Position numbers and translations under genes: made by a program
From: a virus
DNA length: 64,000 bases
Reading direction: 5' to 3' (one strand)
IMG/VR virus record: IMGVR_UViG_3300046092_000062
Coordinates: 61,866 to 125,865 of that record
Notes under the pieces: model-generated
What the model was told of the DNA's origin: nothing
Databases searched by the model: none
Seen by the model: the letters and a program-made list of their open reading frames with translations, nothing else
Shown here: positions 1 through 62,394 of the stretch, piece by piece
Layout: every line of letters begins with the position of its first letter
How positions within the stretch are numbered: the first letter of the stretch is position 1

Positions 1-132
1 TATCCGCACGATGACGAGTCGGGACTAAACCAATTGCACGACGTGGACGATTTGATTGCATTAAAATTAAGCAATAATGATTTAGAGAACATCGCTTACA
101 AAAACGCCGAACGAATTTTTCGGTTAGTATAG
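1..132 (+). CDS. 3' end of an upstream gene (C-terminal fragment; ends ...NAERIFRLV, amidohydrolase-like tail)
   Basis: The frame is open from base 1 to a TAG at 130-132, and the C-terminal motif fits the end of amidohydrolase-type genes. Confidence 0.35.
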   Translation, partial: YPHDDESGLNQLHDVDDLIALKLSNNDLENIAYKNAERIFRLV

Positions 133-138
133 AATTGT

Positions 139-212
139 TGGGGATTAGTTAAACGGTATAACTACGGATTTTGATTCCGTCATTAGTGGTTCGATTCCAC
201 TATCCTCTGCCA
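139..212 (+). tRNA. tRNA-Gln(TTG)
   Basis: Cloverleaf folded by hand. The anticodon arm ACGGA-TTTTGAT-TCCGT matches E. coli tRNA-Gln and the T arm is AGTGG-TTCGATT-CCACT. Positions 1 and 72 form a U-U mismatch and the CCA end is encoded. Confidence 0.65.
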
Positions 213-384
213 AAATTTCATATCCTGTACGAACGGCAGCTCTTGCTTTTCAGGATAATCTCGTGTAAAATGTTTAACACAAGAGAAGCTCTTAGCATCG
301 GAATAAGTTCCGTTGCCGAGTTTAAGTAATTCATCGAATCCAGGATTGGGTTTGCTCATACTGTATTTAACACAAGGAAACAAA

Positions 385-888
385 ATGCCCTGGATCCAAA
401 ACGTAGCACGTAGCGATGTCACTAAAGGGTTTCACATCAACCCCGGTGATAACGCTATGTTGATTCAAATCGTTGACTGCGGCAGCGAATTTCCTACTCC
501 CCTTTACAAGTTTAAAGAAGCTCATCAATTTGAGTTTTTAGATGTAGAGGAAAAGGACTACGTTCTTGAAGAAGAAATGAAGTGCAGTCACGAACAAGCC
601 GCAGAGCTAGTTCGTTTGTTGCAACATGCACTAGAGAATCGCATGAACGTTATTGTTCATTGCCATGCTGGTGTTTGCCGCAGCGGTGCAGTATGTGAAG
701 TTGGAGTCATGCTTGGCTTTGATGACACTGAAGCATTTCGTGCTCCTAACTTGCTAGTCAAGCATCGCATGATGAAGCAGCTGGGTTGGACGTATGATGA
801 GAACGAAGAGCCAACGATCAATGGTCAACCATATCAATACAGCGCAGGCGGGATCATTTTACCCCCAAGTCACGAAGGTGATATTTAA
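385..888 (+). CDS. protein-tyrosine / dual-specificity phosphatase (CX5R P-loop HCHAGVCRSG)
   Basis: The P-loop signature sits in ORF 313..888. The start was moved to the ATG at 385, which has an AAGGA ribosome-binding site, because position 313 is a TTG inside the preceding intergenic region. Confidence 0.65.
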   Translation: MPWIQNVARSDVTKGFHINPGDNAMLIQIVDCGSEFPTPLYKFKEAHQFEFLDVEEKDYVLEEEMKCSHEQAAELVRLLQHALENRMNVIVHCHAGVCRSGAVCEVGVMLGFDDTEAFRAPNLLVKHRMMKQLGWTYDENEEPTINGQPYQYSAGGIILPPSHEGDI

Positions 889-1229
889 TGCACAAAATCT
901 ACGTTGATGTTCCGTACGAGTACAACTATGTGTACCGAGTTGATCATGATGAGTCCACTGGTCCAGAAGTGCTAGCAAGGGACTTTGGGGTAAAGTTTGC
1001 GTTTATTTGCAACGCTGCTCAGAGATTCAGCAACCCCGAAGGACTTGGAGCAGTGGGCAATACAGGTGATGCTCACGTGGTATGGCTTGAGTCGGAGAAA
1101 GACGAATTGTTCTTTCTAATCAAGTCCGGATTTACCAAGTTAAATAAAGATGTAGTTGAACTATTCTTGAAAGCAAGATTGGAAGCTATGCGATTAAAAG
1201 AGAGGAATGATTATGAAACGTGTAATTGA
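888..1229 (+). CDS. hypothetical protein
   Basis: ORF track entry. Its ATG overlaps the upstream stop (TAATG). Confidence 0.5.
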   Translation: MHKIYVDVPYEYNYVYRVDHDESTGPEVLARDFGVKFAFICNAAQRFSNPEGLGAVGNTGDAHVVWLESEKDELFFLIKSGFTKLNKDVVELFLKARLEAMRLKERNDYETCN

Positions 1230-1884
1230 GGTCCGTGCCGCAGAAGGTGGCGAAGACAGTAAACTATTTGTAAAAGACTTGGCACAAGCCTACATTAAAT
1301 TTGCACACAGCAAAGGCTGAACTAGCCGCCTGATAAATGAGTATCTTGGCGAAGTTCATATCTTAGTCGAGGGTGCTGATTTATCTGGCTTATACAACGA
1401 GCCAGGTGGACACCGAATACAGCGTGTACCACCAACAGAGCGAAAAGGACGAGTACATACCAGTACTGTTACTGTCGCTGTTGTTGATCCAAGTGTGCCG
1501 ACCACTACCATAAAAGAATCTGATTTGCGGATTGAATGGTACAGCGGAACAGGCGCAGGAGGACAACACCGTAACAAGCACCAAAACAGTGCCCGCGTTA
1601 CGCACATACCTAGTGGCACAGTAGTAACAGCACAGTGTCGCAGTAGGGAAAATAGTTTGGCAGAAGCTATGCAAACTATTCGAGAAAGAGTTGACAAGAT
1701 AACAAAAGACTGTTATAATAACAACTTAGCAAGCAACAGAAAGCAACAAGTTGGTTCAGGGATGCGAGGAGACAAAATTCGCACATACCGCTTTCAGGAC
1801 GATACAGTTAAAGATCACGTAAGTGACAAGACTGCAAGCGTTAAGAAAGTGTTAGCCGGCAACTTTGACTTACTTTGGAATTAA
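1213..1884 (+). CDS. class-I release-factor-like protein (domains 2-4 only; PxT = PPT and GGQ motifs) with an in-frame TGA at 1318..1320
   Basis: An ATG at 1213 has a GAGGAA ribosome-binding site. The reading frame is continuous through to 1884 except for one TGA. The residues after the TGA (GGHRIQRVPPTERKGRVHTS...SGTGAGGQHRNK) align to RF1 domain 3. The TGA sits where RF1 has a conserved Trp (compare ...AEARRWRVEI). Confidence 0.55.
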
Positions 1885-1984
1885 AAAGGAAAATTGACAT
1901 GAAACGTTCAGGTAAACGATAGTGTCATCCTAGACCCCCGTATGGTCCTGGATGGCACGTAAAAGAAAAATATTTACGATCCAT

Positions 1985-2059
1985 CCACAGCAAACTTTGC
2001 TGGCGAAGTACCCGGCTCTTACCCGGACTAACAGAGTTCGATTCTCTGGCTGTGGACCA
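1985..2059 (+). tRNA. tRNA-Lys(CTT) (tentative anticodon)
   Basis: A 7-bp acceptor stem CCACAGC/GCTGTGG, the T arm CAGAG-TTCGATT-CTCTG, anticodon loop CTCTTAC, and an encoded CCA end. The anticodon stem has one mismatch. Confidence 0.5.
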
Positions 2060-2062
2060 TAT

Positions 2063-2137
2063 GGGGGTATAACTTAGCGGCTAAAGTATCTGGCTTTTAA
2101 CCAGAGAACCAGAGTTCGATTCTCTGTGCCCCTACCA
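2063..2137 (+). tRNA. tRNA-Lys(TTT)
   Basis: Acceptor stem GGGGGTA/TGCCCCT, D stem ACTT/AAGT, anticodon arm TCTGG-CTTTTAA-CCAGA, T arm CAGAG-TTCGATT-CTCTG, and an encoded CCA end. Confidence 0.75.
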
Positions 2138-2143
2138 TATCAA

Positions 2144-2256
2144 AGTACGCTAGTGCATTATAGTGAATCAGGTCGCTCCTGTGGAAGCTAAAACTGCATC
2201 AATTGCCCTGGAGGGAAAGGTCGACGGCTGCGGTTCGATTCCGTAGCGTACTTTGA
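2144..2256 (+). ncRNA. tRNA-like, 113-nt element bracketed by a perfect 18-bp inverted repeat; carries a canonical T arm but is too long for a tRNA
   Basis: CCATATCAAAGTACGCTA at 2138-2155 is the exact reverse complement of TAGCGTACTTTGATATGG at 2245-2262. The interior contains TGCGG-TTCGATT-CCGTA. No standard D arm or anticodon arm could be folded. Confidence 0.3.
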
Positions 2257-2269
2257 TATGGTAAGGCAT

Positions 2270-2347
2270 GGAAGTATAGCTCAGTTGGTTTAGAGCATCG
2301 GACTTTTAATCCGAGGGTCCTGGGTTCGAGCCCCAGTGCTTCTACCA
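2270..2347 (+). tRNA. tRNA-Lys(TTT)
   Basis: Acceptor stem GGAAGTA/TGCTTCT (with G-U pairs), D arm GCTCAGTTGGTTTAGAGC, anticodon arm TCGGA-CTTTTAA-TCCGA, T arm CTGGG-TTCGAGC-CCCAG, and an encoded CCA end. Confidence 0.75.
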
Positions 2348-2416
2348 TATGCAAACACATTTTTCTGAACGCCAGTCATTTGCCGTGCAGAGTAGGTCAA
2401 GTGTGTTTACATATGG
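2346..2416 (+). ncRNA. hairpin-bracketed small RNA element (not tRNA-like inside)
   Basis: ATATGCAAACACAT ... GTGTGTTTACATAT form an imperfect 14-bp inverted repeat around about 40 nt. The same bracket reappears at 13012-13112. Confidence 0.3.
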
Positions 2417-2548
2417 TACTAGAAGGAGTAATTAACCTTCGCCATAATCGGGAGTCATGACCCGATGAACTCGTAGTCTTCTAATTGGTTAGGAAAGGCC
2501 CGTTATGGGGCTTAATGTTGGTTCGAGCCCAACCTACAATGAGTTCGC

Positions 2549-2637
2549 ATATATAAACATACTAGTCGGCGACTAAGCGTATTGCACGGTCTCTACGGAG
2601 TGAAAGGGTCAGTGGTTCGATTCCACATAGTGTGTTT
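2549..2637 (+). ncRNA. possible long-variable-arm tRNA (type II) or degenerate tRNA; isotype unresolved
   Basis: The acceptor stem CATACTA/TAGTGTG pairs fully and the T arm is AGTGG-TTCGATT-CCACA. The D arm and anticodon arm could not be folded convincingly. Confidence 0.3.
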
Positions 2638-2992
2638 TTATATGGTGCAAAAGTAATAAAGGGACTTGGGTGCCCAGAGTTTTGAAAACTCACACACTAT
2701 AGTCGGCATGTGTGTCCACCGTGCATTAACCGACGTTTAAATAAAGCTAGGGCAAGCGCCAGTTAACGGTGGAGCCTATATAGAAGTATTCTTGGCATAA
2801 GTCAAAGCGGGAGAAGAAGCCTAGTATCTGCAGATGCGAAAGTTTCAGAGCTTGACTCCTCCTATGCTTGCATTTGAGAGTGCTTCTATATGGTATAGTG
2901 TAATGCGAATGCACGGGATCGCCACATAAGCCTTTGACGAGCGGTGGAACAAGGTTCAGGTGTGGTAGGAACCCACAATGCCATTTAAATTT

Positions 2993-3068
2993 GCCTTTAT
3001 AGCTCAGTTGGTAGAGCAGAGGATTGAAAATCCTTGTGTCACTGGTTCGAATCCGGTTAGAGGCACCA
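2993..3068 (+). tRNA. tRNA-Phe(GAA)
   Basis: The sequence is close to E. coli tRNA-Phe. It has acceptor stem GCCTTTA/TAGAGGC, D arm GCTCAGTTGGTAGAGC, anticodon arm GAGGA-TTGAAAA-TCCTT, T arm CTGGTTCGAATCCGG, and an encoded CCA end. Confidence 0.85.
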
Positions 3069-3083
3069 AATTATAGGAGTAGT

Positions 3084-4307
3084 ATGGCAAAGTTTTCGGA
3101 GAAGTTCTTCTGTCCTGCACCGTGGACAATGTTATACTATCATGCCAACTCTCCTAGTCCGTGCCACATGATTAAAAATTTAGAGATGGAAGCGACCCCA
3201 TCTGAATATTTTAATAGCGAATGGCTTAAGAATATAAAACAAGAAATGCAGCAAGGGATTGTTCCTGCTGCATGTTCTGGTTGTAAAGAGCGTGAGAGTC
3301 ATGGACTAAAAAGCACACGCGGCGCTATTTGGAATTACTATAATGTAGGACCTGAGCCCGAGTACGAAGATCAATGGTTCGCAAACAAGTTTACCGCAGA
3401 CAGCCCAACCGTTCCAAAAAGAATTGAGCTTAGGTTTAGTAATCTATGTAATATGAAATGCAGGATGTGCGACGAAACATCTAGTTCCAGCTTTGCAGCA
3501 GAAAAAATTGAACATAAGATTAAACCAGACAAAAACGGAAGTCATCTTGAGCATAGCGTGATACCCATCACAAAGATAGAAAACAATTCAATTGATGGCC
3601 TCATGGATACTGCCTTTCTAGCGTCAGTTCGAAAGGTATGTTTAACCGGTGGCGAACCATTTTTAATAAAAGAATATTACAGCTATCTAGATTACTTAAT
3701 AGACAACGGTTTTAACAAAACACTAGACGTAGAATTGTTTACAAATTGCAGTGTATATAATCCATTGTTTATTGATCGACTTAGTAAATTTAAAACAGTT
3801 CAAATGGTGATGAGCATCGATGCTGTGGGCAAAGCGGCTGAATATATTCGTAGTGGAACCGATTGGCCTAAAGTGGAAGCCAATGTGCTTCGACTAAATC
3901 AACTAGCAGCTCCATTTAAAATGGAAGTTACAACTGCCATATCTGCATACAGCCTAATGGACTTTGCAGAGACTGCACGATTTCTAATGAGGTTGTACAC
4001 CGAAAACAACACCATTGGCGTAAAATGTTACAACGTAACTTCGCCTCCGGGTATGCACTTTAATAATCTGCCTAAGCCGTTGAGAATACAAGCAATAGAT
4101 CAAATCGACAAGGCAGTAGAGATTCTAACAGCACCAAACTATTTGGTACTAGTTACAGAGTTGTTAAACGTGAAACACGCATTGACTACTTCGTCCCCGG
4201 ATACACCACTGGCATTCTTTGACTATACTAAGAAGTACGACACCATTAGGGGAGAGTCGTTTGCGGAAGTGTTTTTAACATCTCCTGACAGCACAGATTA
4301 CTTGTAA
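3084..4307 (+). CDS. radical SAM enzyme (CNMKCRMC = CX3CX2C) with an N-terminal Cys-rich domain; paralog of 49128..50156
   Basis: ORF 3024..4307 trimmed to the ATG at 3084, which follows an AGGAG ribosome-binding site and lies after tRNA-Phe. The radical-SAM cysteine triad is present. Confidence 0.7.
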   Translation: MAKFSEKFFCPAPWTMLYYHANSPSPCHMIKNLEMEATPSEYFNSEWLKNIKQEMQQGIVPAACSGCKERESHGLKSTRGAIWNYYNVGPEPEYEDQWFANKFTADSPTVPKRIELRFSNLCNMKCRMCDETSSSSFAAEKIEHKIKPDKNGSHLEHSVIPITKIENNSIDGLMDTAFLASVRKVCLTGGEPFLIKEYYSYLDYLIDNGFNKTLDVELFTNCSVYNPLFIDRLSKFKTVQMVMSIDAVGKAAEYIRSGTDWPKVEANVLRLNQLAAPFKMEVTTAISAYSLMDFAETARFLMRLYTENNTIGVKCYNVTSPPGMHFNNLPKPLRIQAIDQIDKAVEILTAPNYLVLVTELLNVKHALTTSSPDTPLAFFDYTKKYDTIRGESFAEVFLTSPDSTDYL

Positions 4308-5296
4308 AGGTTGGCCACATACACAATATGGTCAATGGGGTGGTCTTTCCAATTATACACTGCTGGTAGATGATGTTTAATCTCCATAATTACAAACGCT
4401 TGCAGCAATGAATGGCTTCGTAGAAAATCTGTTAACTTATAGGTTTTTCTAAATTGTTCAATTTCGCTAAACCATTGTAAGTTTTGCTGGGCATCAATGT
4501 ATGTTTGGTGGAATGACTTTGTGTAACTAGTATCAAATGTGCCAGCCCCGATAGAGTTAACAAAATTGTCGAACCAAGTGGGAAATCGATCGCTAACAAT
4601 ATCAGTTAACGAGATCTGGTACAGGTGATCTATTCGGTCTTTGGGTAGTACATAGGTTTGTTCGTTAACTTCATGCCCGTTGTGTTGATTCCGTACACGA
4701 TACCATTCAGAATACCATTCCAGCCCGCCGGATAACTTATCATAGTCGATGCCTCTAAGGAATGGGAAAATTTCGTAATACGATTCAACAAACAAATTCC
4801 GCGCCTCAATAGAGTCTTGACAATTAAAACTATCAAACCCAAACCGACGTTCGACTATTTGATTCGCCTTAAAGAAAACAGGCCATTTGGTGATAGTATT
4901 TAATGATCCGTATTTGCGATCGTCGAGTACATCGTTATCATTGATAATAACAATAACTGGATCGGGATCACTTAATAGTATCGATCGGATAGCCATGTCC
5001 GGTCTTGACACATCAAAAGATGTTGGTATGTCATGACAGTTGAGTAGAAAAACTTTTTTCTCTTTTGGTTGATTGTATGTCATCCAAATTAGATGTTGAT
5101 GAATACTTTGATGAGTTGGTATTCTTGCGTGTAAGTGCGCAGTACCTATTCCTCCAAACATCTCACTAACTTCTTTGTTTACTGGATCATCAACGGTTTG
5201 ACTAGCTGAGTCAATTTCACTTTTGTTGATGCACCAATGTATATAACTACCCGACGACCCCGGCGGGTATAATAGATAAATGTTCTTTGACAGCAT
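4298..5296 (-). CDS. hypothetical protein with P-loop-like YPPGSSGSY motif (paralog family with 6302..7141 and 36984..37766; possibly sulfotransferase-like)
   Basis: Minus-strand ORF 4298..5440 trimmed to the Met at 5296, because its N-terminal extension is antisense to tRNA-Thr. Confidence 0.5.
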   Translation of the reverse strand: MLSKNIYLLYPPGSSGSYIHWCINKSEIDSASQTVDDPVNKEVSEMFGGIGTAHLHARIPTHQSIHQHLIWMTYNQPKEKKVFLLNCHDIPTSFDVSRPDMAIRSILLSDPDPVIVIINDNDVLDDRKYGSLNTITKWPVFFKANQIVERRFGFDSFNCQDSIEARNLFVESYYEIFPFLRGIDYDKLSGGLEWYSEWYRVRNQHNGHEVNEQTYVLPKDRIDHLYQISLTDIVSDRFPTWFDNFVNSIGAGTFDTSYTKSFHQTYIDAQQNLQWFSEIEQFRKTYKLTDFLRSHSLLQAFVIMEIKHHLPAVYNWKDHPIDHIVYVANLYK

Positions 5297-5317
5297 GGAA
5301 TATTTATTGAAATAAAT

Positions 5318-5391
5318 GCTCTTATAGGTAAATGGTATATCGGCGCTGTGGTATAGCGCAGTCCTAAGTTCGATTCTTAGTAGGAGCACCA
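5318..5391 (+). tRNA. tRNA-Thr(GGT)
   Basis: Acceptor stem GCTCTTA/TAGGAGC, D arm GGTA-AATGGTA-TATC, anticodon arm GCGCT-GTGGTAT-AGCGC, T arm CTAAG-TTCGATT-CTTAG, and an encoded CCA end. Confidence 0.7.
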
Positions 5392-5406
5392 CGTGATAAG
5401 TATCTA

Positions 5407-6318
5407 ATGCAACATAATTTTTTACCATGTAAATATCCAATTATTTGTGCCCCGATGAATAGAGTGTCGGACGTTAAGCTAGCACTTGCAGTTCATAGAG
5501 CTGGGTGCTTGCCGAGCCTTGTGGTCCACAATCATGATGAATCTGAATTAGCTAACGATGTGGCTAAGATTGTGAACGAAATGAAAGAGTTCACAGAGCT
5601 GTCGGGATCAAGCGATTTTATACTTGCACTTAGATCAGATTTTTTATTAAAAGATACCAAGCTGCTCCCTGCGATGTTAAAGTACAGGCCTGCGTATGTT
5701 GAATTCTTTGACAATATTGATTGGTCTGACATAAAGGTGGTCAACCTTATTAAGCTGCTTAGAACATACAGAATTAAAATAATCTATAAAATACTTGCAC
5801 CTAGAATATTGGGCAAGTTAGTGGAATTTGTTGACGCTATTGACGTTAAGGGCCCTGATGCCGCTGCCCGTGTGAATACCACAACTACTACTAGTTTAGT
5901 AGATCGGATTAAGCAACTGAAATCCGCTAATCCACATTTGCACATTATTGCATCTGGTGGTATGTCATCGCAACAGGATGTGCAGGCATGTATTGACGCT
6001 GGCGCAAGTGCAGTGGCATTGGGCACAGTATTTGCCATGTCAGAAGAGTCGTCGATTTCAGTTGAGACAAAAATGAAAATGATTGAATCAACATTCTCAC
6101 AAGTTGTGAACATTGGCGAAGCCCAACAAAATGCGTTAGTGTTTACAAACGAAAAAGATGTTGACGGCAACCACACTGTGGGACTAGAACTTGGTATAAA
6201 AAGCCCAGTCGCTGGTCATGTGTTTGTGGGGAAAGCAATTGATTCAATTGACTCAATTAAAACAGTGGAAACAATCGTGTCGGAGCTAACTGGGGTAACT
6301 GATGCAAAAACCCGATGA
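5407..6318 (+). CDS. nitronate monooxygenase / FabK-like FMN-dependent TIM-barrel oxidoreductase
   Basis: Motifs PIICAPM and SDVKLALAV..AG, plus IIASGG...GASAVALGTVF, are typical of the NMO/2-nitropropane dioxygenase family. Confidence 0.6.
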   Translation: MQHNFLPCKYPIICAPMNRVSDVKLALAVHRAGCLPSLVVHNHDESELANDVAKIVNEMKEFTELSGSSDFILALRSDFLLKDTKLLPAMLKYRPAYVEFFDNIDWSDIKVVNLIKLLRTYRIKIIYKILAPRILGKLVEFVDAIDVKGPDAAARVNTTTTTSLVDRIKQLKSANPHLHIIASGGMSSQQDVQACIDAGASAVALGTVFAMSEESSISVETKMKMIESTFSQVVNIGEAQQNALVFTNEKDVDGNHTVGLELGIKSPVAGHVFVGKAIDSIDSIKTVETIVSELTGVTDAKTR

Positions 6319-7141
6319 TGTAACTATTTGTTACTTCGGGGGCAGCGGCGGCTTCTTTTGCTTGTACCTTCTTTTGCTTAGTAACCAATACCAATGCTGC
6401 TTCGAAAATGGGTCAGCTGACGCACACGTAACAAAAGTTACGCAATGGGATATACAGAATGTTTCCAATTGGAAAGATAATGAGATATGGCCTAACAACA
6501 GCAACACCAAAGCAGAGAGTTTCGATGTTAGCAAAGTCTTTTTTCTTTGTAACCCATTGCAATTAACGCAAAAGCCCGGAGTGCAAGATGACGTGCTATC
6601 TAAATGTCCAGGAAAGAAAATTCTATTGTACACAGATTTAGAAACACAATGGCATCTAACAAAAACTAAACGTGCCTACTGGTTTCAAAAAGGACAGCAG
6701 CTAAACGGACAAGGACCAAGTTGGCAGACAGCCGAATATCGTGAAGAACAAGTGCTAATATGGTATAATAACATCAGACAGGATAGCTGGCCTCAAATCT
6801 CCAAGGCAGATGATTTTTACAATCTTCCGCAGGAAATACAGGATATTTGTATAACTGACTATAGCATGTGGGAAGTCCTTGACATTGGCAAATTTGACAA
6901 TGATGACTACCGACCCCGTGGAGTAGAGTTTAGGGGAGACATAGTGTACAAGAAAGTAGTGGACATTATGCCTAAGATGGACATAGTGGTTAAGCTACAA
7001 GATTTGATTAAAACACAAGGCCGTGTGTTGTTCGACCAGCTTGGTATTGAGACAAACAAAGACACGCAAAAGTTCATAATCCAGTACCTGTCGTTGCACA
7101 CAGTCGAGCAGCGGAAATTCCTATTAGGCAAGCACATATAA
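6302..7141 (+). CDS. hypothetical protein, CYFGGSGGFF motif (paralog family X)
   Basis: ORF track entry. The N-terminal glycine-rich loop resembles the motifs in 4298..5296 and 36984..37766. Confidence 0.5.
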   Translation: MQKPDDVTICYFGGSGGFFCLYLLLLSNQYQCCFENGSADAHVTKVTQWDIQNVSNWKDNEIWPNNSNTKAESFDVSKVFFLCNPLQLTQKPGVQDDVLSKCPGKKILLYTDLETQWHLTKTKRAYWFQKGQQLNGQGPSWQTAEYREEQVLIWYNNIRQDSWPQISKADDFYNLPQEIQDICITDYSMWEVLDIGKFDNDDYRPRGVEFRGDIVYKKVVDIMPKMDIVVKLQDLIKTQGRVLFDQLGIETNKDTQKFIIQYLSLHTVEQRKFLLGKHI

Positions 7142-7166
7142 TCAATTTGGCAACCAACTCATAATT

Positions 7167-8375
7167 ATGATTAATTTAAAACTAGGATATTACTCATGCA
7201 ACGGAGTCACGTTCGATTCTAAGATTGCTGCATGTGTGTATTCTGTGCAGCACAATAACGCATTAGTTACGTGGACATTCAACGACCGAGAGTTTAATCA
7301 GCACAACTGGACACAAGAACCTGACCTAACACTGGATCAATTGTATGATATTAGATCAAAGCAGCTAAGAGATCAGTACGACTATGTTATATTGAGCTAC
7401 AGCGGCGGCGCCGACAGTCACAATATCCTAATGAGCTTTATTCGTCAAGGCCTCCATATAGACGAGATTGTGGTAAACACAACTGAGAAAGCTAGTGCAA
7501 GATTCACAGAGTTAGATAAAAACAATCTTGACCCCCGCAATGCAGGAGCAGAGCATGTGTTTCAGACGTTGCCTAGACTACGTGAAATTCAGGGATTGAT
7601 CCCTAAAACAAAGATTAGTGTGTTGGATTTGTCGGATCATCTATTTGAGAGTTTTTCAAAAGCCGATGATGCTAGCTGGGTATTAGAAAAGCGCGAAAGC
7701 CTAAACCCAGCTGGAGTAACACGGTTTAATTATCTGCACTTTGATCAATTGCGCAAACAGTTTGATAAAGATAAAAAAATTGCATTAGTGCTAGGAATCG
7801 AAAAGCCCAGGGTGTTTATTAGACACGGACAGTTGGTACTACGGTTTACAGACCGTGCGGCCAACATTGTTACTGTAGCAGAACACGTTAAAGAATACAC
7901 AAATAGCACAGTAGAATTCTTCTACTGGAGTCCAGATGCAGTGCCAGTGGTTATCAAACAAGCGCACACTATCAAGCGATGGCTTGAGGCTAATCCAGAC
8001 AAACAGCATCTCTGGGACGTTGACACACTAACACCGGAGATGGTGAGACTAGTGCATGAGCGAGTGTACAGACCACTGCTATACACTACGTGGGACAACA
8101 GTTGGTGGCAATCAAACAAAGCAGTTAACGATTGGACAAGCGAGTTTGACCAGTGGTTTAAGGATGGGTACAGTGATACTCGTGCTTACCAAGTGTGGGC
8201 AGAGGGTATTGAGTATGTTCGTGAAATTTTGCATCCTTACATAAACACTACTCATCTTGTTAATGGTCAAGCAGACGGCCTTGACATATTTGTTAAAGAG
8301 TACTTAATTGGACCAGTGAAAAATCTTTGTCCAGAATTAAAGAATAAACTGTATAGGCATTTGCAAAATAAATAA
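7167..8375 (+). CDS. PP-loop superfamily ATP pyrophosphatase (SYSGGADS; PAPS-reductase/CysD-like fold)
   Basis: An SGGxDS PP-loop motif lies near the N-terminus. Confidence 0.6.
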   Translation: MINLKLGYYSCNGVTFDSKIAACVYSVQHNNALVTWTFNDREFNQHNWTQEPDLTLDQLYDIRSKQLRDQYDYVILSYSGGADSHNILMSFIRQGLHIDEIVVNTTEKASARFTELDKNNLDPRNAGAEHVFQTLPRLREIQGLIPKTKISVLDLSDHLFESFSKADDASWVLEKRESLNPAGVTRFNYLHFDQLRKQFDKDKKIALVLGIEKPRVFIRHGQLVLRFTDRAANIVTVAEHVKEYTNSTVEFFYWSPDAVPVVIKQAHTIKRWLEANPDKQHLWDVDTLTPEMVRLVHERVYRPLLYTTWDNSWWQSNKAVNDWTSEFDQWFKDGYSDTRAYQVWAEGIEYVREILHPYINTTHLVNGQADGLDIFVKEYLIGPVKNLCPELKNKLYRHLQNK

Positions 8376-8382
8376 CTAGCGT
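8354..8382 (+). promoter_or_regulatory. sigma70-type promoter TTGCAA-17 bp-TATAAT
   Basis: The -35 and -10 hexamers match consensus with a 17-bp spacer. A small ORF and a tRNA cluster lie downstream. Coordinates are approximate to within about 2 bp. Confidence 0.45.
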
Positions 8383-8408
8383 GTATAATACACAGAAGGG
8401 ACGATGCA

Positions 8409-8543
8409 ATGAAGTCAAGAGAGACAATCGAAAAGGCATACGGCAACGTCCCAAAAGAAATTGGGGTCACAGTTGATGTATTTAACTGGGTCCCGGAGTT
8501 TAGAGGTGTTAAGTATTACTGGATTCGTGCAGTAAGATTTTTC
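8409..8543 (+). CDS. small hypothetical protein (44 aa)
   Basis: An ATG with an AAGGGA ribosome-binding site lies between the promoter and tRNA-Ser. The ORF is below the track's size cutoff. Confidence 0.3.
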
Positions 8544-8548
8544 ACCAG

Positions 8549-8639
8549 GTAAGAATACGGAGTGTGGGCAGGCCGGTAATGCAGCACCCTGCTAAGGTGT
8601 AGACTTGTGATGAGCAGGTCATAGGGTTCGATTCCCTAA
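8549..8639 (+). tRNA. tRNA-Ser(GCT)
   Basis: 91 nt long. Acceptor stem GGAGTGT/ACACTCC, anticodon arm GCACC-CTGCTAA-GGTGT, a long variable arm, T arm TAGGG-TTCGATT-CCCTA, and an encoded CCA end. Confidence 0.7.
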
Positions 8640-8657
8640 CACTCCGCCAGTGATAAG

Positions 8658-8733
8658 TAAGTATAATGCGGATGTAGCTCAGCTGGTAGAGCACAACGTT
8701 GCCAACGTCGAGGTCGTCGGTTCGAACCCGATC
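8658..8733 (+). tRNA. tRNA-Gly(GCC)
   Basis: Close to E. coli tRNA-Gly(GCC). Acceptor stem GCGGATG/CATCCGC, anticodon loop TTGCCAA, T arm GTCGG-TTCGAAC-CCGAT, discriminator U followed by CCA. Confidence 0.8.
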
Positions 8734-8738
8734 ATCCG

Positions 8739-8815
8739 CTCCATAAATGGCTCTCTAGTTCCAATTGGCAGAACATCGGATTCCAAATCCGAGTGTTGGG
8801 GGTTCGAATCCCTCG
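8739..8815 (+). tRNA. tRNA-Trp(CCA), D stem GTTC/GAAC, i.e. a U11-A24 pair
   Basis: Acceptor stem GGCTCTC/GGGGGTC, anticodon arm TCGGA-TTCCAAA-TCCGA, T arm GGGGG-TTCGAAT-CCCTC, discriminator G followed by CCA. Confidence 0.8.
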
Positions 8816-8820
8816 GGGGT

Positions 8821-9280
8821 CGCCAATATAATGAAATCAAAATTCTCCGATTCCCAATTACGCACAATCACGAAAGTGGTTACATACCGCGTGATTATCA
8901 CATGTAGTCACATCATCAATGGGTTTATTGTTAGTGGTAGTCTTGCTCTTGGATTGCAAATTGCAGGCCTAGCAGCAGTAATTAACAGTTTGTTATTTTG
9001 GCTACACGAGCGCATGTGGAATAGGCTACAATGGAAACGTCTCCATTTAAACAGTTCTACGTTCGTAGAAACCAATCCTAGAAGCATCAGTAAGATATTA
9101 ACTTGGCGCATTTTCTCAATGTCTAGTAATTTTCTCATCCCTTACTTGATAACTGGATCATGGGGATCAGCAGCGGCATTCCTTGGGATAGCAGTAATAG
9201 TTAACATGGCTCTATACTATCTACATGAACGAGTGTGGAACATAGTTAAGTGGGGTAAACAGGTCAACGGCCTTTGGTGA
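8821..9280 (+). CDS. small membrane protein with an internal tandem duplication (two LxxLHER(M/V)WN repeats)
   Basis: ORF 8765..9280 trimmed to the ATG at 8821, after tRNA-Trp. The protein has two hydrophobic repeats. Confidence 0.5.
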
Positions 9281-9342
9281 AATGGATATCATATCTGTCT
9301 TCGAAACAGATGGTGGGAGTTCGATCCTCTCAAGGCCGACCA
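9268..9342 (+). tRNA. tRNA-Arg(TCG)
   Basis: Acceptor stem CGGCCTT/AAGGCCG, D stem GTGA/TCAT, anticodon arm TCTGT-CTTCGAA-ACAGA, T arm GGGAG-TTCGATC-CTCTC, and an encoded CCA end. The 5' end overlaps the preceding CDS by 13 nt. Confidence 0.6.
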
Positions 9343-9348
9343 AAATAG

Positions 9349-9377
9349 TTGACTTAGTCAACGGCAGTGTGTATAAT
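9349..9377 (+). promoter_or_regulatory. sigma70-type promoter TTGACT-17 bp-TATAAT, with the palindrome GTTGAC-TTA-GTCAAC overlapping the -35 hexamer
   Basis: Consensus -35 and -10 hexamers, with a 7-bp-arm inverted repeat lying across the -35. Confidence 0.45.
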
Positions 9378-9604
9378 ACAAACTGTTCATAAAAGAGTTA
9401 GCCATGAGCAAGGCAGCTTTCTGTTACCAGTGGTAGGCGTAGTATCAATAATCTTGCAATTAGTGGCCTGTGTTTAAGTATCGGGAACCCCCGAGGCAAC
9501 AAAACGATTTTAAAATTGAGAACCGTTTCGAGCCCACAACGTGTGGTCTAGGTAGGCATTCGCAAGATGCTGCTTGATCTAGATCATGGTTGCCCATCTG
9601 ATCA

Positions 9605-10240
9605 ATGGGGACCAAGTGGTCCGCGGTTGAAAAACAGAATTACATGGCTAACCCTTTTATGAATACATTAACGTTTCAGACCCCGGTACGTATAGTTAAT
9701 AACTGGGATAAAACCACACAAGTAGCAAAGCACTGCATCGATCTAGTAAAGAGTCAATCGGCCAGTATCACTAGGGAATACAAGTACAGCGATTACGGAT
9801 ATCACTATGAACTAGGATCAACTGGCACAGTTAGTCACATCACTAACGGTAGTGCAGAATGGTATTCAGTGACTGGTAAGCTAATAGAATCTACCATGCG
9901 CTTTTTGCCGCTAATGCTAGATGACCTAGCAGACCTTGACCCTACGTTTGCTAGCATTAACTACATGGTGGGCAATGGCGCAGAGCATAGGGATCACGAA
10001 AGTCAGCAAACTGGGTTCAATTATTTTTTTGCTGATTGTGACAGCACTACCTACGCAAGAAACGCAGACATCTGCGAATCCTATCCTAGCGTAAAAGACA
10101 CAGGGTGGATCCTTGATATCCAACAACTACACAGCATCTCAAATACAAACGAACGCATTTGGTTTAACCTTAGATTTGGTAAACCCTTTGCATATTGCAG
10201 AGATTGGTTTGCAGATCATTTGGTATTAACTTATGAATAA
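9605..10240 (+). CDS. hypothetical protein
   Basis: ORF track entry. Confidence 0.5.
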   Translation: MGTKWSAVEKQNYMANPFMNTLTFQTPVRIVNNWDKTTQVAKHCIDLVKSQSASITREYKYSDYGYHYELGSTGTVSHITNGSAEWYSVTGKLIESTMRFLPLMLDDLADLDPTFASINYMVGNGAEHRDHESQQTGFNYFFADCDSTTYARNADICESYPSVKDTGWILDIQQLHSISNTNERIWFNLRFGKPFAYCRDWFADHLVLTYE

Positions 10241-11408
10241 AATTATCTCAATTGAGCCTGCAATCGATCCAGTCAATCGTCCTACATTTTTGTTGGACTG
10301 GGAACTAACAATGAAGTGCAATTTGGATTGCGACTACTGCTCGACTGGCATTGAGTACGGTGGTCACGACAACAGCACAGCACATCCTCCTAAAGACGAA
10401 TGCTTAAAAACCATTGACTTCATGTTTGCTTATGCAGACAAGTACATGCAGCTAAAGCCCAAATGGCAGCGCATGGTGGTTCTCAATGTATACGGCGGCG
10501 AAAGTATATTTCATCCAGACATTGTTGAGATCCTAGAGCAGGTGCGAGCAAGACACACATACGATTGGCCATTGACTGTTACCTGCACAAGTAACGCAGT
10601 GGCTGGTAAGAATCTTTGGGAAAAGGTTGCAAACTTAATTGATGAGTTTACCGTTAGTTTTCACAGCAGTGCATTGCCTAAACAGAGACAGCAAGTACTA
10701 GACAACATACTTTATAATAAGGCTATCGGCAGGCGCCAAAAGGTGGTGTTTGTGATGCACAACGATCCTGTTTTGTGGGATATTAGCCAACAAGCTATTG
10801 AGTTTTGTAAAACACACGATGTTAGGTATGTAGTTAAAGCAAACGACACCCCTACACCTCAGTGGCAGTATAACAAAGAACAGTTTATTTACTTTCAAGA
10901 TTACTACAAGTCACGCACACCAGCTAAGAGTAGGGATGCTCTAACAAAGGCGCTGGATGCAGTGGAAACTGACACAGTTGGCATGGGTAAGGTCGGTCGA
11001 GGTTGTTGTGGTGGCCGAAAGCTATGCACTAACCAAGACCTACAACACCCAACAGCCTTTGTACCACATGCAGATTTCATGGGTTGGAGTTGCAGTGTTA
11101 ACTGGTACTTCTTGTACATTAAACAGATCAATGGCGATGTGTACACAAACAAGGATTGCCGTATGCGCTTTGATGGTACAGTTGGTCCAATTGGTAATTT
11201 GTCAAATGGTAATCTTATACTAGAACAAGTGCAGAAAAACATTGACAACAAAGCCATGCCTGTTATACAATGTGCTAGAACAAGATGTATATGCGGTTAC
11301 TGTGCTCCAAAAGCGCAAGACCCAAAAGATTTTGAAGCTATTATGGATAAACACATAGTTGACAAGCAAGTCAAATTTGTTTATAATAACAGCTTAGATG
11401 ATAAGTAA
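10233..11408 (+). CDS. radical SAM enzyme (CNLDCDYC) with a C-terminal Cys-rich SPASM/twitch-like region
   Basis: The CX3CX2C triad sits near the N-terminus, and several CxxC/CxC clusters lie in the last 150 residues. Confidence 0.7.
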   Translation: MNKIISIEPAIDPVNRPTFLLDWELTMKCNLDCDYCSTGIEYGGHDNSTAHPPKDECLKTIDFMFAYADKYMQLKPKWQRMVVLNVYGGESIFHPDIVEILEQVRARHTYDWPLTVTCTSNAVAGKNLWEKVANLIDEFTVSFHSSALPKQRQQVLDNILYNKAIGRRQKVVFVMHNDPVLWDISQQAIEFCKTHDVRYVVKANDTPTPQWQYNKEQFIYFQDYYKSRTPAKSRDALTKALDAVETDTVGMGKVGRGCCGGRKLCTNQDLQHPTAFVPHADFMGWSCSVNWYFLYIKQINGDVYTNKDCRMRFDGTVGPIGNLSNGNLILEQVQKNIDNKAMPVIQCARTRCICGYCAPKAQDPKDFEAIMDKHIVDKQVKFVYNNSLDDK

Positions 11409-11419
11409 TTTATCACAAT

Positions 11420-11503
11420 GCGTAAGTGGTGGAATGGTATACACTCTGGTCTTAGAAGCCAGCGCCGCGAGGATTGAGAGTTCGAGTCTCTCCTTACGCA
11501 CCA
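11420..11503 (+). tRNA. tRNA-Leu(TAG)
   Basis: 84 nt long. Acceptor stem GCGTAAG/CTTACGC, D stem GTG/CAC, anticodon arm CTGGT-CTTAGAA-GCCAG, a long variable arm, T arm GAGAG-TTCGAGT-CTCTC, and an encoded CCA end. Confidence 0.8.
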
Positions 11504-11533
11504 TTTATTATTTTAAGTTTTTCTAAAAAGTGC

Positions 11534-11562
11534 TTGACACTTAATGAAACTCTTGTTATAAT
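11534..11562 (+). promoter_or_regulatory. sigma70 consensus promoter TTGACA-17 bp-TATAAT (P1 of a tandem pair)
   Basis: Exact consensus hexamers. The spacer contains the AATGAAA motif shared with the other early promoters. Confidence 0.55.
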
Positions 11563-11585
11563 AGATACATGTTAAGAAATTAACA

Positions 11586-11603
11586 AACGTTCTTTAAAAA
11601 TTT
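11586..11603 (+). promoter_or_regulatory. boxA-like antitermination element CGTTCTTTAAAAATTT
   Basis: It resembles the rrn/lambda-nut boxA (GCTCTTTAACAA) and lies about 25 nt downstream of the P1 -10 hexamer. Confidence 0.4.
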
Positions 11604-11899
11604 GTTTTGATGTAAAGTAAGCAGGCGTACCACGCTAATAGGTTGCGTGACTCTTGTCGAAAATTTGGTCCAGATAGAAAGCTGGGAACTCTTGAGTAGT
11701 CTGTAAGCGGCTACTGTGGCGTCTAACACCTATGAGTTAGAAACGATCTGTTCCACGTAGCAATACGCAGGAAGAATGATTGCAATAGAGTAGAGTAACG
11801 CTCTACCGGTTGCATGAGGGTCAACTGAAAGACGCAAGTCTTACCCGTTACCTTGTAACCAGGTAAAAAGAGGCATCAAAATAAATTTCTAAATAACTG

Positions 11900-11928
11900 T
11901 TGACAGCAAATGAAAAGTTTGCTACAAT
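11900..11928 (+). promoter_or_regulatory. sigma70 consensus-like promoter TTGACA-17 bp-TACAAT (P2)
   Basis: The second promoter lies about 370 bp downstream of P1 in the same orientation. Confidence 0.5.
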
Positions 11929-11961
11929 AGCAGCTTAGTTAGACATTGTGCTAACTAACAA

Positions 11962-11976
11962 AGTTCTTTAAAATAG
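11962..11976 (+). promoter_or_regulatory. second boxA-like element AGTTCTTTAAAATAG, followed by the hairpin GTATAAG-AAGTT-CTTATAC
   Basis: The arrangement is the same as after P1, and a boxB-like hairpin sits directly downstream. Confidence 0.4.
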
Positions 11977-12602
11977 ATACGTATAAGAAGTTCTTATACA
12001 CATGCACATAAATGCGTAGGCCACGCAGATATGGTTGGATTCATAGCTTGGGCTATTGCCCAGGTTGGCAGGTTCGAAACCTGTGAGTGTGCAGTTGTAT
12101 AAGAATTTAGGGCAGTTTAATGTCCTGCAAAGAGTATGGTTCGCCCAGCTTGATGCGAAGAATAACTGTGGTGACACAGCCAAAGGAGGTATGCCTACAT
12201 AACTCCGCTAGCAATAGTTCATTTAGACAAGCCTGCTCACTCCTGTGAGGGAGCGTTCACTCAGCGACGGGTGGATGTAACAGTGACGCAAAGTGCATAG
12301 GGAAGAACGTTTGCTTACAAGCCTGAGATTGCATCAAGGGGAACTTGAGTAGATGGAAAGTAACAGGTGGTGCTGACTTCTATGCGAAACCAACTTTGTT
12401 AATTGGTATGAGAAAGGGTAGTGTATTGGTTCGAAGGGTTGCACCTAAGAGCTCGTATGCAGTTTTAGTGGTTGGTGGACGTAGTAATACGAACATTGGT
12501 CGCAAAAGACGACTGAGTAGCTCGCAAGGCAAAAGGTACGTGGTGTGTTGTATTGTGTATTCCAAAAGATTATGCAGCAACTGAGTCAGCACATCGCAGT
12601 AG

Positions 12603-12674
12603 GTTGATATAGTTCATTGGTAGAACATCTGTCTCTTAAACAGAATGCGGTGGGTTCAATTCCCACTATCATTA
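12603..12674 (+). tRNA. tRNA-Lys(CTT) (CCA end not encoded)
   Basis: D arm GTTC-ATTGGTA-GAAC, anticodon arm TCTGT-CTCTTAA-ACAGA, T arm GTGGG-TTCAATT-CCCAC. The acceptor stem GTTGATA/TATCATT has one U-U mismatch. Confidence 0.55.
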
Positions 12675-13359
12675 CAAAACGCAAAGACTGACTCGGTCGT
12701 ATGTGAAAAGCATCTAATACTTGAGCCGCAAGGTAATCAAGTCAGACGTAACTCGCAAGGTGAAATCTGTTTATGCAGGAAGTTTCGTAGCTACTTAGCG
12801 GTGGTGAATGGCTCTAAAGGTCAACGGGATAGAAAGCGTAGAATAGCATACGGCGACAAGACTACTGCCTGTCTTTAAAAACGGCGATGCTGACAGCAGA
12901 CTAGACTACTATGCAAATAGGGTTTAGTGGAAGTCGGAAGAAAGTAGACTCGCAAGGTTTACAATAATGTCCGAGGTGTTGTTAGGTTAGGATGTATTCT
13001 CAGTCCGCCAACTTATATGCAAACACATTAGTAAAAGTCTGTAAAAGGACGAAGCAACTGACTCTGTAATAGGAGCTGTTTGCTCAGTGTGTTTACATAT
13101 AAGTATGCTTTGATGGTTAAAGTTGGATAGGTAGTGGGTAGCTTGTGAAATCATAGTAGCAAGTCCACAGCAACCCAAACGGTAGAAGCAGCTTATTTGA
13201 AAGCACATTTGTTCCTGAAAGATTTTACGGTTTGGATGGTTCAGCAAATGTGTTTCCAAATAAGAATTTGGTGATTGTGTGGAGCTAAGGCGATTCGCTG
13301 GACTATGAAGCACGACGAGAGCGTTGAACTTGAAATAGGTTCAACCACCAGACTAATAT

Positions 13360-61683: not shown

Positions 61684-62394
61684 ATGTTAACATCACCATA
61701 TGAATATTCACCATTAAGCAGAGAAACACTAGAAGGCAAACGTCACTATTGTTTACCCGACGGCAGCAAAGTACCCTCTGTTACCACTATCCTAGACCGT
61801 ACCAAGAGCGAGGAAAAGAAAGCAGTCCTTGCTAACTGGAAAAAGCGGGTAGGCGAGCAGCAAGCACAAAAGATTGTGACAGAAGCTGCTAACCGCGGCA
61901 CACGTATGCACAGTTACCTAGAGCAGTACATCTTAACAGGTGACATGAAGGAACTGCCCTCTAATCCCTTTGCACAACCCAGCTGGTTTATGGCAGCAGA
62001 AGTTATCCTACAAGGACTACAACACGTAGACGAGTTTTGGGGCACAGAAGTTCCACTTTATTATAGTGGGTTATATGCAGGTACCACTGACTGCATTGGC
62101 GTATGGAAGGGCAAGCCTGCTATCCTTGACTTTAAGCAAACTAACAAGCCCAAGAAACGTGAGTGGATTGATGATTACTTTATTCAGCTAGCAGCATACG
62201 CCGCAGCACACAATCACACTCACGGCACAGAAATCAACACTGGCGTTATTTTAATGGCTCAACAGCCAACTACATTGCCCAATGGCGAACTAGACAAGCC
62301 GGTTTATACCGAATATGTAATCGAAGGCGATGAGTTTGCACATTGGGACAAAGAGTGGATGAAACGTGTAGAGATGTATTACCTGTCTAGCTAA
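61684..62394 (+). CDS. PD-(D/E)XK-superfamily nuclease (lambda-exonuclease/YqaJ-like; ILDFKQT motif)
   Basis: ORF 61576..62394 trimmed to the ATG at 61684. A D...(D/E)xK arrangement is present. Confidence 0.5.
   Translation: MLTSPYEYSPLSRETLEGKRHYCLPDGSKVPSVTTILDRTKSEEKKAVLANWKKRVGEQQAQKIVTEAANRGTRMHSYLEQYILTGDMKELPSNPFAQPSWFMAAEVILQGLQHVDEFWGTEVPLYYSGLYAGTTDCIGVWKGKPAILDFKQTNKPKKREWIDDYFIQLAAYAAAHNHTHGTEINTGVILMAQQPTTLPNGELDKPVYTEYVIEGDEFAHWDKEWMKRVEMYYLSS

Follow-up and report, generated by a model that had tools for sequence, protein, structure and literature searches.

Four lysine-anticodon tRNA genes in a large phage tRNA array, one of them embedded in a GOLLD RNA

Phages have been proposed to use their own transfer RNAs (tRNAs) to evade host nucleases that deplete the tRNA pool (PMC10264068). 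For lysine, the tRNA-Lys of T5 defeats the PARIS defence (PMC11464382, PMC12409363) and a phage tRNA-Lys rescues infection from PrrC170 (PMC11555353). The PARIS nuclease AriB of E. coli B185 cleaves the tRNAs for lysine (UUU), threonine (UGU) and asparagine (GUU) between positions 40 and 41, within U36AAUC|A41, and the resistance of the T5 tRNA results from the changes U39 to A (Mut1) and A41 to C (Mut2), the authors of the T5/PARIS study considering that overexpressed viral tRNAs might also compete (PMC12409363). We have analysed a stretch of 64,000 nucleotides (nt) of viral DNA (positions 61,866 to 125,865 of the IMG/VR record IMGVR_UViG_3300046092_000062), referred to here as the window, in which four genes carry lysine anticodons, three of them clustered at 1985-2347 (Lys1 to Lys3) and the fourth at 12.6 kb (Lys4). 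An original prediction, made from the sequence, regarded them as an unusual redundancy of tRNA-Lys that may provide cleavage-resistant decoys or spares, starting from the premise that phages supply replacement or resistant copies of this tRNA, which is established for other phages (PMC11464382, PMC12409363, PMC11555353). The account that we consider probable is another one, namely that the four genes are three kinds of object located in the right-hand end of a jumbo-phage array of about 47 tRNA genes, largely two-fold redundant.

Comparison with the closest described systems shows both likenesses and differences. In common with T5, the locus has phage lysine tRNAs with changes at positions 39 and 41 relative to the E. 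coli target. However, the tRNA-Lys of T5 is a free-standing UUU species whose resistance was seen in cleavage and plaque assays, whereas two of the four copies described here have the anticodon CUU, one is embedded in a GOLLD RNA, and all are known from sequence alone. The arrays of jumbo and T5-like phages are comparable in having dozens of tRNA genes on one strand with small open reading frames (ORFs) and small RNAs between them, strong host-type promoters, coverage of nearly all amino acids, duplicates, and lysine, threonine and asparagine tRNAs with anticodon-stem substitutions relative to the E. coli targets (PMC12409363, PMC11555353, PMC10264068). In respect to these arrays, the locus under study differs in the lack of a cultured relative, in a non-canonical tRNA-Lys(CUU) and in a conserved CUU-UUU tandem with a spacing of 3 nt.

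GOLLD RNAs occur in phage tRNA islands, sometimes with a tRNA in the linker J13/15 (PMC12286853, PMC12990946, PMC6582537), and those of env-38 and S. agalactiae form nanocages of 10 to 14 protomers (PMC12286853, PMC12990946). The roles proposed for them include "inhibited storage" and the exposure of covalently linked tRNAs (PMC12286853, PMC12990946, PMC6582537). The GOLLD found in the window resembles those with a J13/15 tRNA in its full-model score above the gathering threshold, in its location within a phage tRNA island and in the position of its tRNA between the pre-linker hairpin and the 3' domain (PMC12286853). In mycobacterial GOLLDs the insert is a tRNA-Phe or a pseudo-tRNA (PMC12990946, PMC6582537), a separate transcript of the latter not having been detected (PMC6582537), whereas here it has a Lys(CUU) anticodon. 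Moreover, whereas only some of the known GOLLDs carry a tRNA, nearly all members of the lake-phage subfamily do so, mostly with an NUU anticodon (N being any base), a degenerate outer acceptor stem and no CCA. Phage tRNA arrays and linker tRNAs in GOLLD are known already, and the window is a further example of both.

The free-standing lysine tRNA genes and their array

Using ARAGORN, 16 tRNA genes are called in the window, all on the plus strand between 139 and 14542; its intron and transfer-messenger RNA (tmRNA) modes returned nothing extra, and relaxed thresholds gave many overlapping false calls, which were taken as hints only. The four genes with lysine anticodons are real, being called at 1985-2059 (CTT), 2063-2137 (TTT), 2270-2347 (TTT) and 12603-12675 (CTT), and the cloverleaves agree with those which had been folded by hand. 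The anticodon loops are also as claimed, CUCUUAC once and CUUUUAA twice in the cluster, with CUCUUAA in the 12.6-kb copy. All four copies have U35, U36 and a discriminator A. The identity rules of the E. coli lysyl-tRNA synthetase are U35, U36 and the discriminator A73, and all four copies agree with rules of this type, which may not be those of the host; charging with lysine is what we infer on this basis.

Lys1 (1985-2059, plus strand) is a non-canonical tRNA-Lys(CUU), with C1:G72, A8, A9, a C27·A43 non-pair, the loop CUCUUAC (C38), a discriminator A and an encoded CCA, and the Rfam family RF00005 gives no match at 1985-2059 even at E≤10. The exact anticodon arm of Lys1 is present in 35 viral contigs. 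Among 24 distinct homologues of its class, 92.9% of the cells are paired, compared with 67.7% upon shuffling and 48.6% or less in slid registers, and double (compensatory) changes are observed at 16 of 21 pairs, including seven of the seven acceptor pairs. In agreement, the covariation score is 0.658 versus 0.165 upon shuffling (0 of 500 shuffles reach the observed value) and at most 0.118 in slid registers. Within this class A8 and A9 are invariant, C1:G72 is found in 18 of the 24 sequences and positions 27 and 43 are unpaired in 20 of them. Since the cloverleaf is kept with compensatory changes throughout the 24 homologues, Lys1 is a real tRNA fold under selection, despite the fact that Rfam misses it.

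Only 3 nt downstream, Lys2 (2063-2137, plus strand) is a tRNA-Lys(UUU) with G31-C39, the loop CUUUUAA, U8 and an encoded CCA. Both Lys2 and Lys3 pass RF00005, at 66.2 and 70.1 bits versus a threshold of 29, over model positions 1-71. Lys1 and Lys2 are 77% identical over 56 nt (repeat family D5), with the T arm and the D stem in common, and are an old tandem duplicate which has diverged. The order CUU then UUU recurs in 40 related phage loci, corresponding to 31 distinct sequence pairs, and in 15 of the 21 release-factor (RF)-anchored loci that have any lysine gene, the gap being 2-5 nt in 39 of 44 adjacent pairs. This recurrence across related loci argues that the tandem is the standard isoacceptor pair of the phage family, and not redundancy. 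Lys3 (2270-2347, plus strand), in turn, is a canonical bacterial-type tRNA-Lys(UUU), with A31-U39, C41 (UAAUCC), the loop CUUUUAA, U8, a discriminator A and an encoded CCA, and tRNA-Lys genes from phages of Aeromonas and Erwinia match it at 88-91% identity. In the related loci that were retrieved for comparison (numbered L001, L002 and so on), a third lysine gene at this position is confined to the closest relatives, L001, L002 and L039.

The source of the window is an uncultured lineage of jumbo lake phages. A megablast search of window positions 1-12000 against cultured phages returned short tRNA-sized matches alone, and thus no cultured relative was found with this search; IMG/VR contains 316 relatives of the release factor 1 (RF1)-like protein encoded beside the lysine cluster, and the related contigs reach 240-364 kb, 364 kb being the greatest length among those that encode such a relative, which points to a jumbo-phage lineage. 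L001 and L002 are 95% identical to window positions 179-2357 and share with the window the gene order Gln, Lys(ctt), Lys(ttt), Lys(ttt), Phe, Thr. On the L002 contig, the Gln gene that opens the window is preceded by 31 further tRNA genes and these, in turn, by tRNA-free sequence, so that together with the 16 genes of the window the array would comprise about 47 genes and be largely two-fold redundant. In it, leucine is represented by 5 genes, Met(cat) and lysine by 4 each, arginine, threonine, isoleucine and glycine by 3 each, and glutamine, proline, tyrosine, tryptophan, valine, phenylalanine, glutamate, aspartate and serine by 2 each.

When the upstream genes and those of the window are considered together, at least 13 anticodons other than those of lysine occur in duplicate, among them Leu(taa), Leu(tag), Pro, Ile(gat), Tyr, Trp, Thr(tgt), Gln, Phe, Glu, Asp, Ser(gct) and Gly(tcc), with Met(cat) in four copies. 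The redundancy of tRNA-Lys is therefore not exceptional, contrary to what had been proposed, and the statement that no isotype other than glycine is duplicated proved to be an artefact of the window edge, beyond which the relative has the 31 additional genes. The lysine copies would thus be ordinary for an array in which duplication is general. Lysine accounts for 6.3% of 16,990 codons (548 AAA and 526 AAG), ranking seventh, and codon usage does not account for a dosage of four genes, a point on which the original prediction holds.

Within the account that we favour, Lys1 and Lys2 would be an ancient tandem, probably co-transcribed from a promoter at 1691-1719 and serving as the standard isoacceptors of AAG and AAA, two codons that occur in the phage in a ratio of about 1:1, and Lys3 would be an additional canonical UUU copy, one among many same-anticodon duplicates. 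The three free-standing genes are most likely ordinary adaptors, which would free phage translation from dependence on the tRNAs of the host, also under their depletion, and the divergence of their anticodon stems may add nuclease resistance.

The fourth copy and the GOLLD linker

The sequence around 12.6 kb, which had been described as a non-coding region, is a GOLLD RNA, and the fourth lysine copy lies within its linker. The match to RF02032 at 12540-13006 scores 198.8 bits versus a gathering threshold of 150 (E=1.3e-54) and covers the full model (1-416 of 416) without truncation. The whole RNA has about 860 nt (about 12150-13010, plus strand, the left boundary being set by conservation), and this span, of more than 800 nt, is conserved across more than 40 homologous loci. 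It consists of a 5' domain (about 12150-12540), a hairpin followed by the linker, and a 3' domain which extends to 13006, and is flanked by tRNA-Leu upstream and tRNA-Cys downstream.

Lys4 (12603-12675, plus strand) was called by ARAGORN and obtains 64.3 bits with the Rfam tRNA model. It has G1·U72, a U2xU71 mismatch, U31-A39 and no encoded CCA, its tail being ACAAAA, whereas CCA is encoded in 15 of the 15 free-standing tRNA genes of the window; it thus departs from the seven-pair acceptor stem with a 3' CCA by which a free-standing gene is recognised. These features identify Lys4 as a constrained tRNA-shaped module of GOLLD, the linker insert of a phage RNA whose known nanocages have 12 to 14 protomers, and not as a fourth ordinary lysine gene. 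The same plan, a tandem pair plus a GOLLD-embedded CUU copy, is repeated in five other phages (L116, L124, L127, L128 and L136).

We have sampled GOLLDs using two patterns from the 3' domain, and hence independently of the tRNA. In a first sample, considering the contigs that extend far enough upstream, a tRNA or tRNA-like insert occupies the place of Lys4 in all but one. A larger sample yielded 102 distinct linkers, in 76 of which ARAGORN calls a tRNA, with Asn GUU (36), Lys UUU (16) and Lys CUU (10) followed by Thr UGU (3), Arg UCU (2), Ile GAU (2) and Asn AUU (2), and by one case each of Ile UAU, Glu UUC, UUA, Trp CCA and an 8-nt loop. Most of the 26 linkers without a call resemble Asn or Lys tRNAs and have degenerate T loops; some inserts have no T-loop consensus, for example those of L131, L140 and L150, which have CTTCAAAATCAC, and the GOLLD of L200 retains just an anticodon-arm-like hairpin, CTGTCTTTTAAACAG. 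In a limited search of the literature we found no description of this NUU bias of GOLLD inserts.

The constraint on the inserts is distributed unevenly along the molecule. The D and anticodon stems are fully paired (100%), with compensatory changes, in 28 distinct inserts; pairing reaches 95.6% in the T stem and 89-100% at acceptor pairs 4-7, whereas at 1:72, 2:71 and 3:70 it is 39-43%, compared with about 38% expected by chance. Within the anticodon loop of 99 distinct inserts, U33 is invariant and the respective base of UUAA is found at each of positions 35-38 in about 91-96%. Position 39 of the GOLLD inserts is mostly a purine. Parsimony on a neighbour-joining tree of the inserts gives 25 changes at position 34 (95th percentile), 7 at position 35 and 5 at position 36, although these counts are noisy, the sequences being short, and position 34 is among the fastest columns and not uniquely so. 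A hot spot at the anticodon was not evident in near-identical linker pairs (≤4 differences), as the 13 pairs have 0 differences at positions 34-36. L136 (CUU), L147 (UUU) and L154 (UCU) have nearly one tRNA body and differ at positions 34-35, and L086, whose GOLLD is 82% identical to that of the window, has a Lys(UUU) insert with a different body. The lysine anticodon of Lys4 appears to be one state of a toggling NUU anticodon.

A pattern scan of a genome collection gave 37 matches, mostly by chance, of which 4 are GOLLDs of this subfamily. These four (L174, L177, L182 and L200) are on contigs of metagenome-assembled genomes attributed to Acidobacteriota, to an "uncultured bacterium" and, twice, to Saprospiraceae; the contigs could be phage sequence binned in error, or else hint weakly at a host among the Bacteroidota, and give no reliable host.

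Promoters, structured spacers and neighbouring genes

A consensus sigma-70-type promoter is located at 1691-1719 (plus strand; TTGACA, a 17-nt spacer and TG-TATAAT; 12/12 with an extended -10), about 265 nt upstream of Lys1 and within the 3' part of the RF1-like ORF, and likely drives the cluster of Lys-Phe tRNAs and small RNAs. A promoter-like site (11900-11928, plus strand; TTGACA, a 17-nt spacer and TG-TACAAT; 11/12) precedes GOLLD. Repeat family D2 has three copies, at the 1691-1719 site, at 11357-11397 and at 11898-11938. Only three perfect 12/12 sigma-70 promoters are found in the first 15 kb, at 1691-1719, 11359-11387 and 11534-11562, all on the plus strand and in the region of the tRNAs and small RNAs, and two of them share a longer repeat, AGTTGACA...TATAATAACA.CTTAG. 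The presence of three such promoters in the tRNA region suggests strong early transcription by the host polymerase, expression of the tRNA genes being inferred.

Several of the spacers between the tRNA genes are predicted to be structured. E1 (2138-2269, plus strand), the 132-nt spacer between Lys2 and Lys3, has a minimum free energy fold of -42 kcal/mol, with a 14-bp terminal stem adjoining a T-arm-like hairpin, GCGGTTCGATTCCGT; in the predicted fold this terminal stem is paired to the CCA-TAT tail of Lys2. The element is shared by L001 and L002 alone, its identity there being 96%. E3 (2416-2560, plus strand) is a conserved tRNA-like small RNA present in at least 20 related phage contigs, often right after the lysine pair, for which RNAalifold predicts an upstream hairpin and a cloverleaf-like fold that consists of an acceptor-like stem of 10 bp, a D-like arm, a 5-bp stem ending in the short loop GUUAU at the place of the anticodon loop, and a T arm, GTTGGTTCGAGCCCAAC; compensatory changes are observed in 17 of the 30 predicted pairs. 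Between Lys3 and tRNA-Phe, E5 (2645-2895) and E6 (2885-2992), both on the plus strand and predicted to be highly structured, have 78-93% identity in about 10 related contigs. When positions 1880-3100 were searched against Rfam at E≤10, neither Lys1 nor any of E1-E6 received a credible match, chance matches of microRNA type being all that they returned.

Two related long hairpins, ATATGCAAACACAT...GTGTGTTTACATAT, are present on the plus strand at 2345-2420 and 13014-13100. The former follows Lys3 and pairs with its CCA tail, and the latter is located directly 3' of GOLLD. Several elements of the cluster are bounded by ACCATAT...ATATGGT, and these boundaries, as well as the long hairpins, may be processing or termination signals. 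A further tRNA-like element of 88-90 nt (12003-12092, plus strand), whose variable arm is long and whose acceptor stem is weak, is located downstream of the promoter-like site and ahead of the 5' domain of GOLLD; it is called Pro(tgg) by ARAGORN in L135 and L139, and in the window at relaxed thresholds only. The species 1 and 2 RNAs of T4 are stable small RNAs within a phage tRNA cluster. E1, E3, E5 and E6 are like them in being structured tRNA-like small RNAs among tRNA genes, a likeness of description without sequence relationship. The array thus holds conserved tRNA-like small RNAs without family assignment. Other translation-related RNAs are found in related phage arrays, with an RNase P RNA in L120 (251.6 bits) and tmRNAs of the permuted/beta type in L127 and of the standard type in L118, showing the extent to which such phages carry them.

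The ORFs of the window include helicases, a DnaB-type helicase, tail proteins and an 800-aa protein containing an endolysin. Radical-SAM proteins, a dual-specificity phosphatase and the RF1-like protein are encoded among the tRNA genes. Two proteins with a radical-SAM domain (3084-4307 and 10233-11408, plus strand) are interleaved with these genes, as are the phosphatase (385-888) and an NMO/IMPDH-like protein (5407-6318); these proteins could modify tRNA or nucleotides. No RNA-repair genes were identified near the tRNA array among 30 ORFs scanned.

The RF1-like ORF (1213-1884, plus strand) has an in-frame TGA at 1318-1320. Of the release-factor domains its product has just 2-4; it contains the tripeptide PPT (in IQRVPPTE) as well as a GGQ motif, and scores 196 bits with NCBIfam prfA, under the cut-off. 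The in-frame TGA is kept in 26 of 26 relatives checked and falls at a place which, in comparison with RF1, we take to be that of a tryptophan. Genome-wide recoding of UGA was rejected as its cause, as TGA is the stop codon of 24 of the 67 ORFs of the window. This points to gene-specific readthrough or autoregulation, and not to genome recoding.

Weighing the explanations and significance

The possibility that the lysine copies were selected specifically as cleavage-resistant spares or decoys against PrrC, RloC or PARIS AriB was considered in light of their sequences at positions 36-41, which are UACCCG in Lys1, UAACCA in Lys2, UAAUCC in Lys3 and UAAACA in Lys4. The copies are thus divergent, as had been claimed; they differ from one another at the AriB determinant and all four differ from the E. 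coli site UAAUCA, which may not match that of the host, by U39 to A in Lys4, A41 to C in Lys3 and U39 to C in Lys2. Nuclease evasion is compatible with these four sequences, and for the free-standing copies it would be a reasonable, if unproven and non-specific, reading. Selection for this purpose in particular is, we think, doubtful. It is favoured by the rescue from PARIS and PrrC that phage tRNA-Lys genes afford in E. coli systems (PMC11464382, PMC12409363, PMC11555353), by the published general proposal (PMC10264068) and by the fact that, among distinct free-standing phage genes, UAAU is kept in 35% of those for Lys(UUU) versus 75% of those for Asn(GUU), in a sample biased by the partial retrieval of loci with Lys anticodon-arm patterns. 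However, same-anticodon duplication is the rule of the array and not specific to lysine, many phages keep the CUU-UUU pair together as a unit, and the determinants come from the AriB of E. coli B185 only and may not hold for the host, its tRNA-Lys and its defences. Furthermore, CUU tRNAs read AAG only, and half of the lysine codons of the phage are AAA; a CUU tRNA cannot read AAA and therefore cannot replace a cleaved tRNA-Lys(UUU). A decoy is most plausible in the case of the GOLLD-embedded copy. Neither does the demand for AAA and AAG seem to set the number of copies: although AAG represents 49% of the lysine codons in a genome with a G+C content of 43.5%, and a CUU isoacceptor would be justified if the host is without one, lysine ranks seventh, alanine (8.6%) has one gene and aspartate (6.5%) has two in the inferred array, and one of the four lysine copies is embedded in GOLLD without a CCA end, which makes it improbable that the four genes match a high codon demand.

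Two other possibilities concern the less canonical copies. Were Lys1 and/or Lys4 decaying pseudogenes, the real count would be two; the silence of Rfam and the mismatch that closes the anticodon stem in Lys1, the G1·U72, the U2xU71 mismatch and the missing CCA in Lys4, and the mycobacterial precedent of an embedded pseudo-tRNA whose separate transcript was not detected (PMC6582537) would agree with this. The class of Lys1, however, is conserved with abundant compensatory changes, and a non-pair of the C27·A43 type is its norm; likewise, the paired D, anticodon and T stems of the GOLLD inserts denote constraint, and drift is confined to their outer acceptor end, so that decay is very unlikely. 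Constraint on the inserts could also be purely architectural, with the self-complementary UUAA of positions 35-38 forming a kissing loop between protomers and the lysine anticodon being incidental. The near-constant UUAA and the invariant U33, the fast wobble position 34 compared with positions 35 and 36, and the acceptor end, which is not conserved, are all in line with this, as is the use of identical-loop contacts (L21-L21'') in GOLLD cages (PMC12990946). Yet UUAA is the normal sequence of Lys and Asn tRNAs at positions 35-38 anyway, about 10% of the inserts (Thr UGU, Arg UCU, Ile, Glu) do not keep the palindrome, and the linker is disordered in the one full-length cage solved, whose linker has no tRNA (PMC12286853); a solely architectural insert is therefore, in our view, improbable too.

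A number of points weigh against the reading of the four genes as three kinds of object in a generally duplicated array. The upstream part of this array is taken from a relative with 95% identity and was not read from the source phage, and isotypes were assigned by anticodon alone. Lysine has 4 genes for two codons, the second-highest count (leucine 5, methionine 4), so that some lysine-specific pressure may be at work. Lys1 fails the Rfam tRNA model and has A8 instead of the near-universal U8, which makes its efficiency as an adaptor uncertain.

With Lys4 read as a module of GOLLD, an unlikely but specific function can be formulated, in which GOLLD would be an uncleavable RNA that serves as a sponge or competitor towards Lys/Asn-directed anticodon nucleases or towards a different host factor which binds the anticodon arm. 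The nanocage would then be a multivalent carrier of 12-14 tRNA-shaped modules whose anticodon arms fall almost entirely within the AAN box and those next to it (Asn GUU and Lys UUU/CUU, with Thr UGU and Arg UCU as rare cases), which is in essence the set of targets of AriB (Lys UUU, Thr UGU, Asn GUU) and PrrC (Lys). The modules would have lost the acceptor end needed for translation while retaining the elbow and the anticodon arm, with fast switching of the wobble base, and the purine at position 39 would replace the U39 needed by AriB. The overlap of the insert isotypes (Asn, Lys, Thr) with the AriB target set is striking, bearing in mind that one E. coli enzyme supplied the determinants, which may not hold for the host. 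The anticodons of these isotypes are all one mutation from UUU, and therefore common descent could explain the isotype set.

As a case of lysine redundancy the locus has little weight, being one more large phage tRNA array. On the other hand, the class of Lys1 is widespread and unseen by the Rfam tRNA model, and covariance-model annotation may undercount such tRNAs. In respect to GOLLD, the fact that those of lake phages almost always carry a constrained tRNA-like module gives a testable handle on the role of the nanocage. If GOLLD does act as a sponge, this would assign a counter-defence role to an RNA whose function has been open since 2009.

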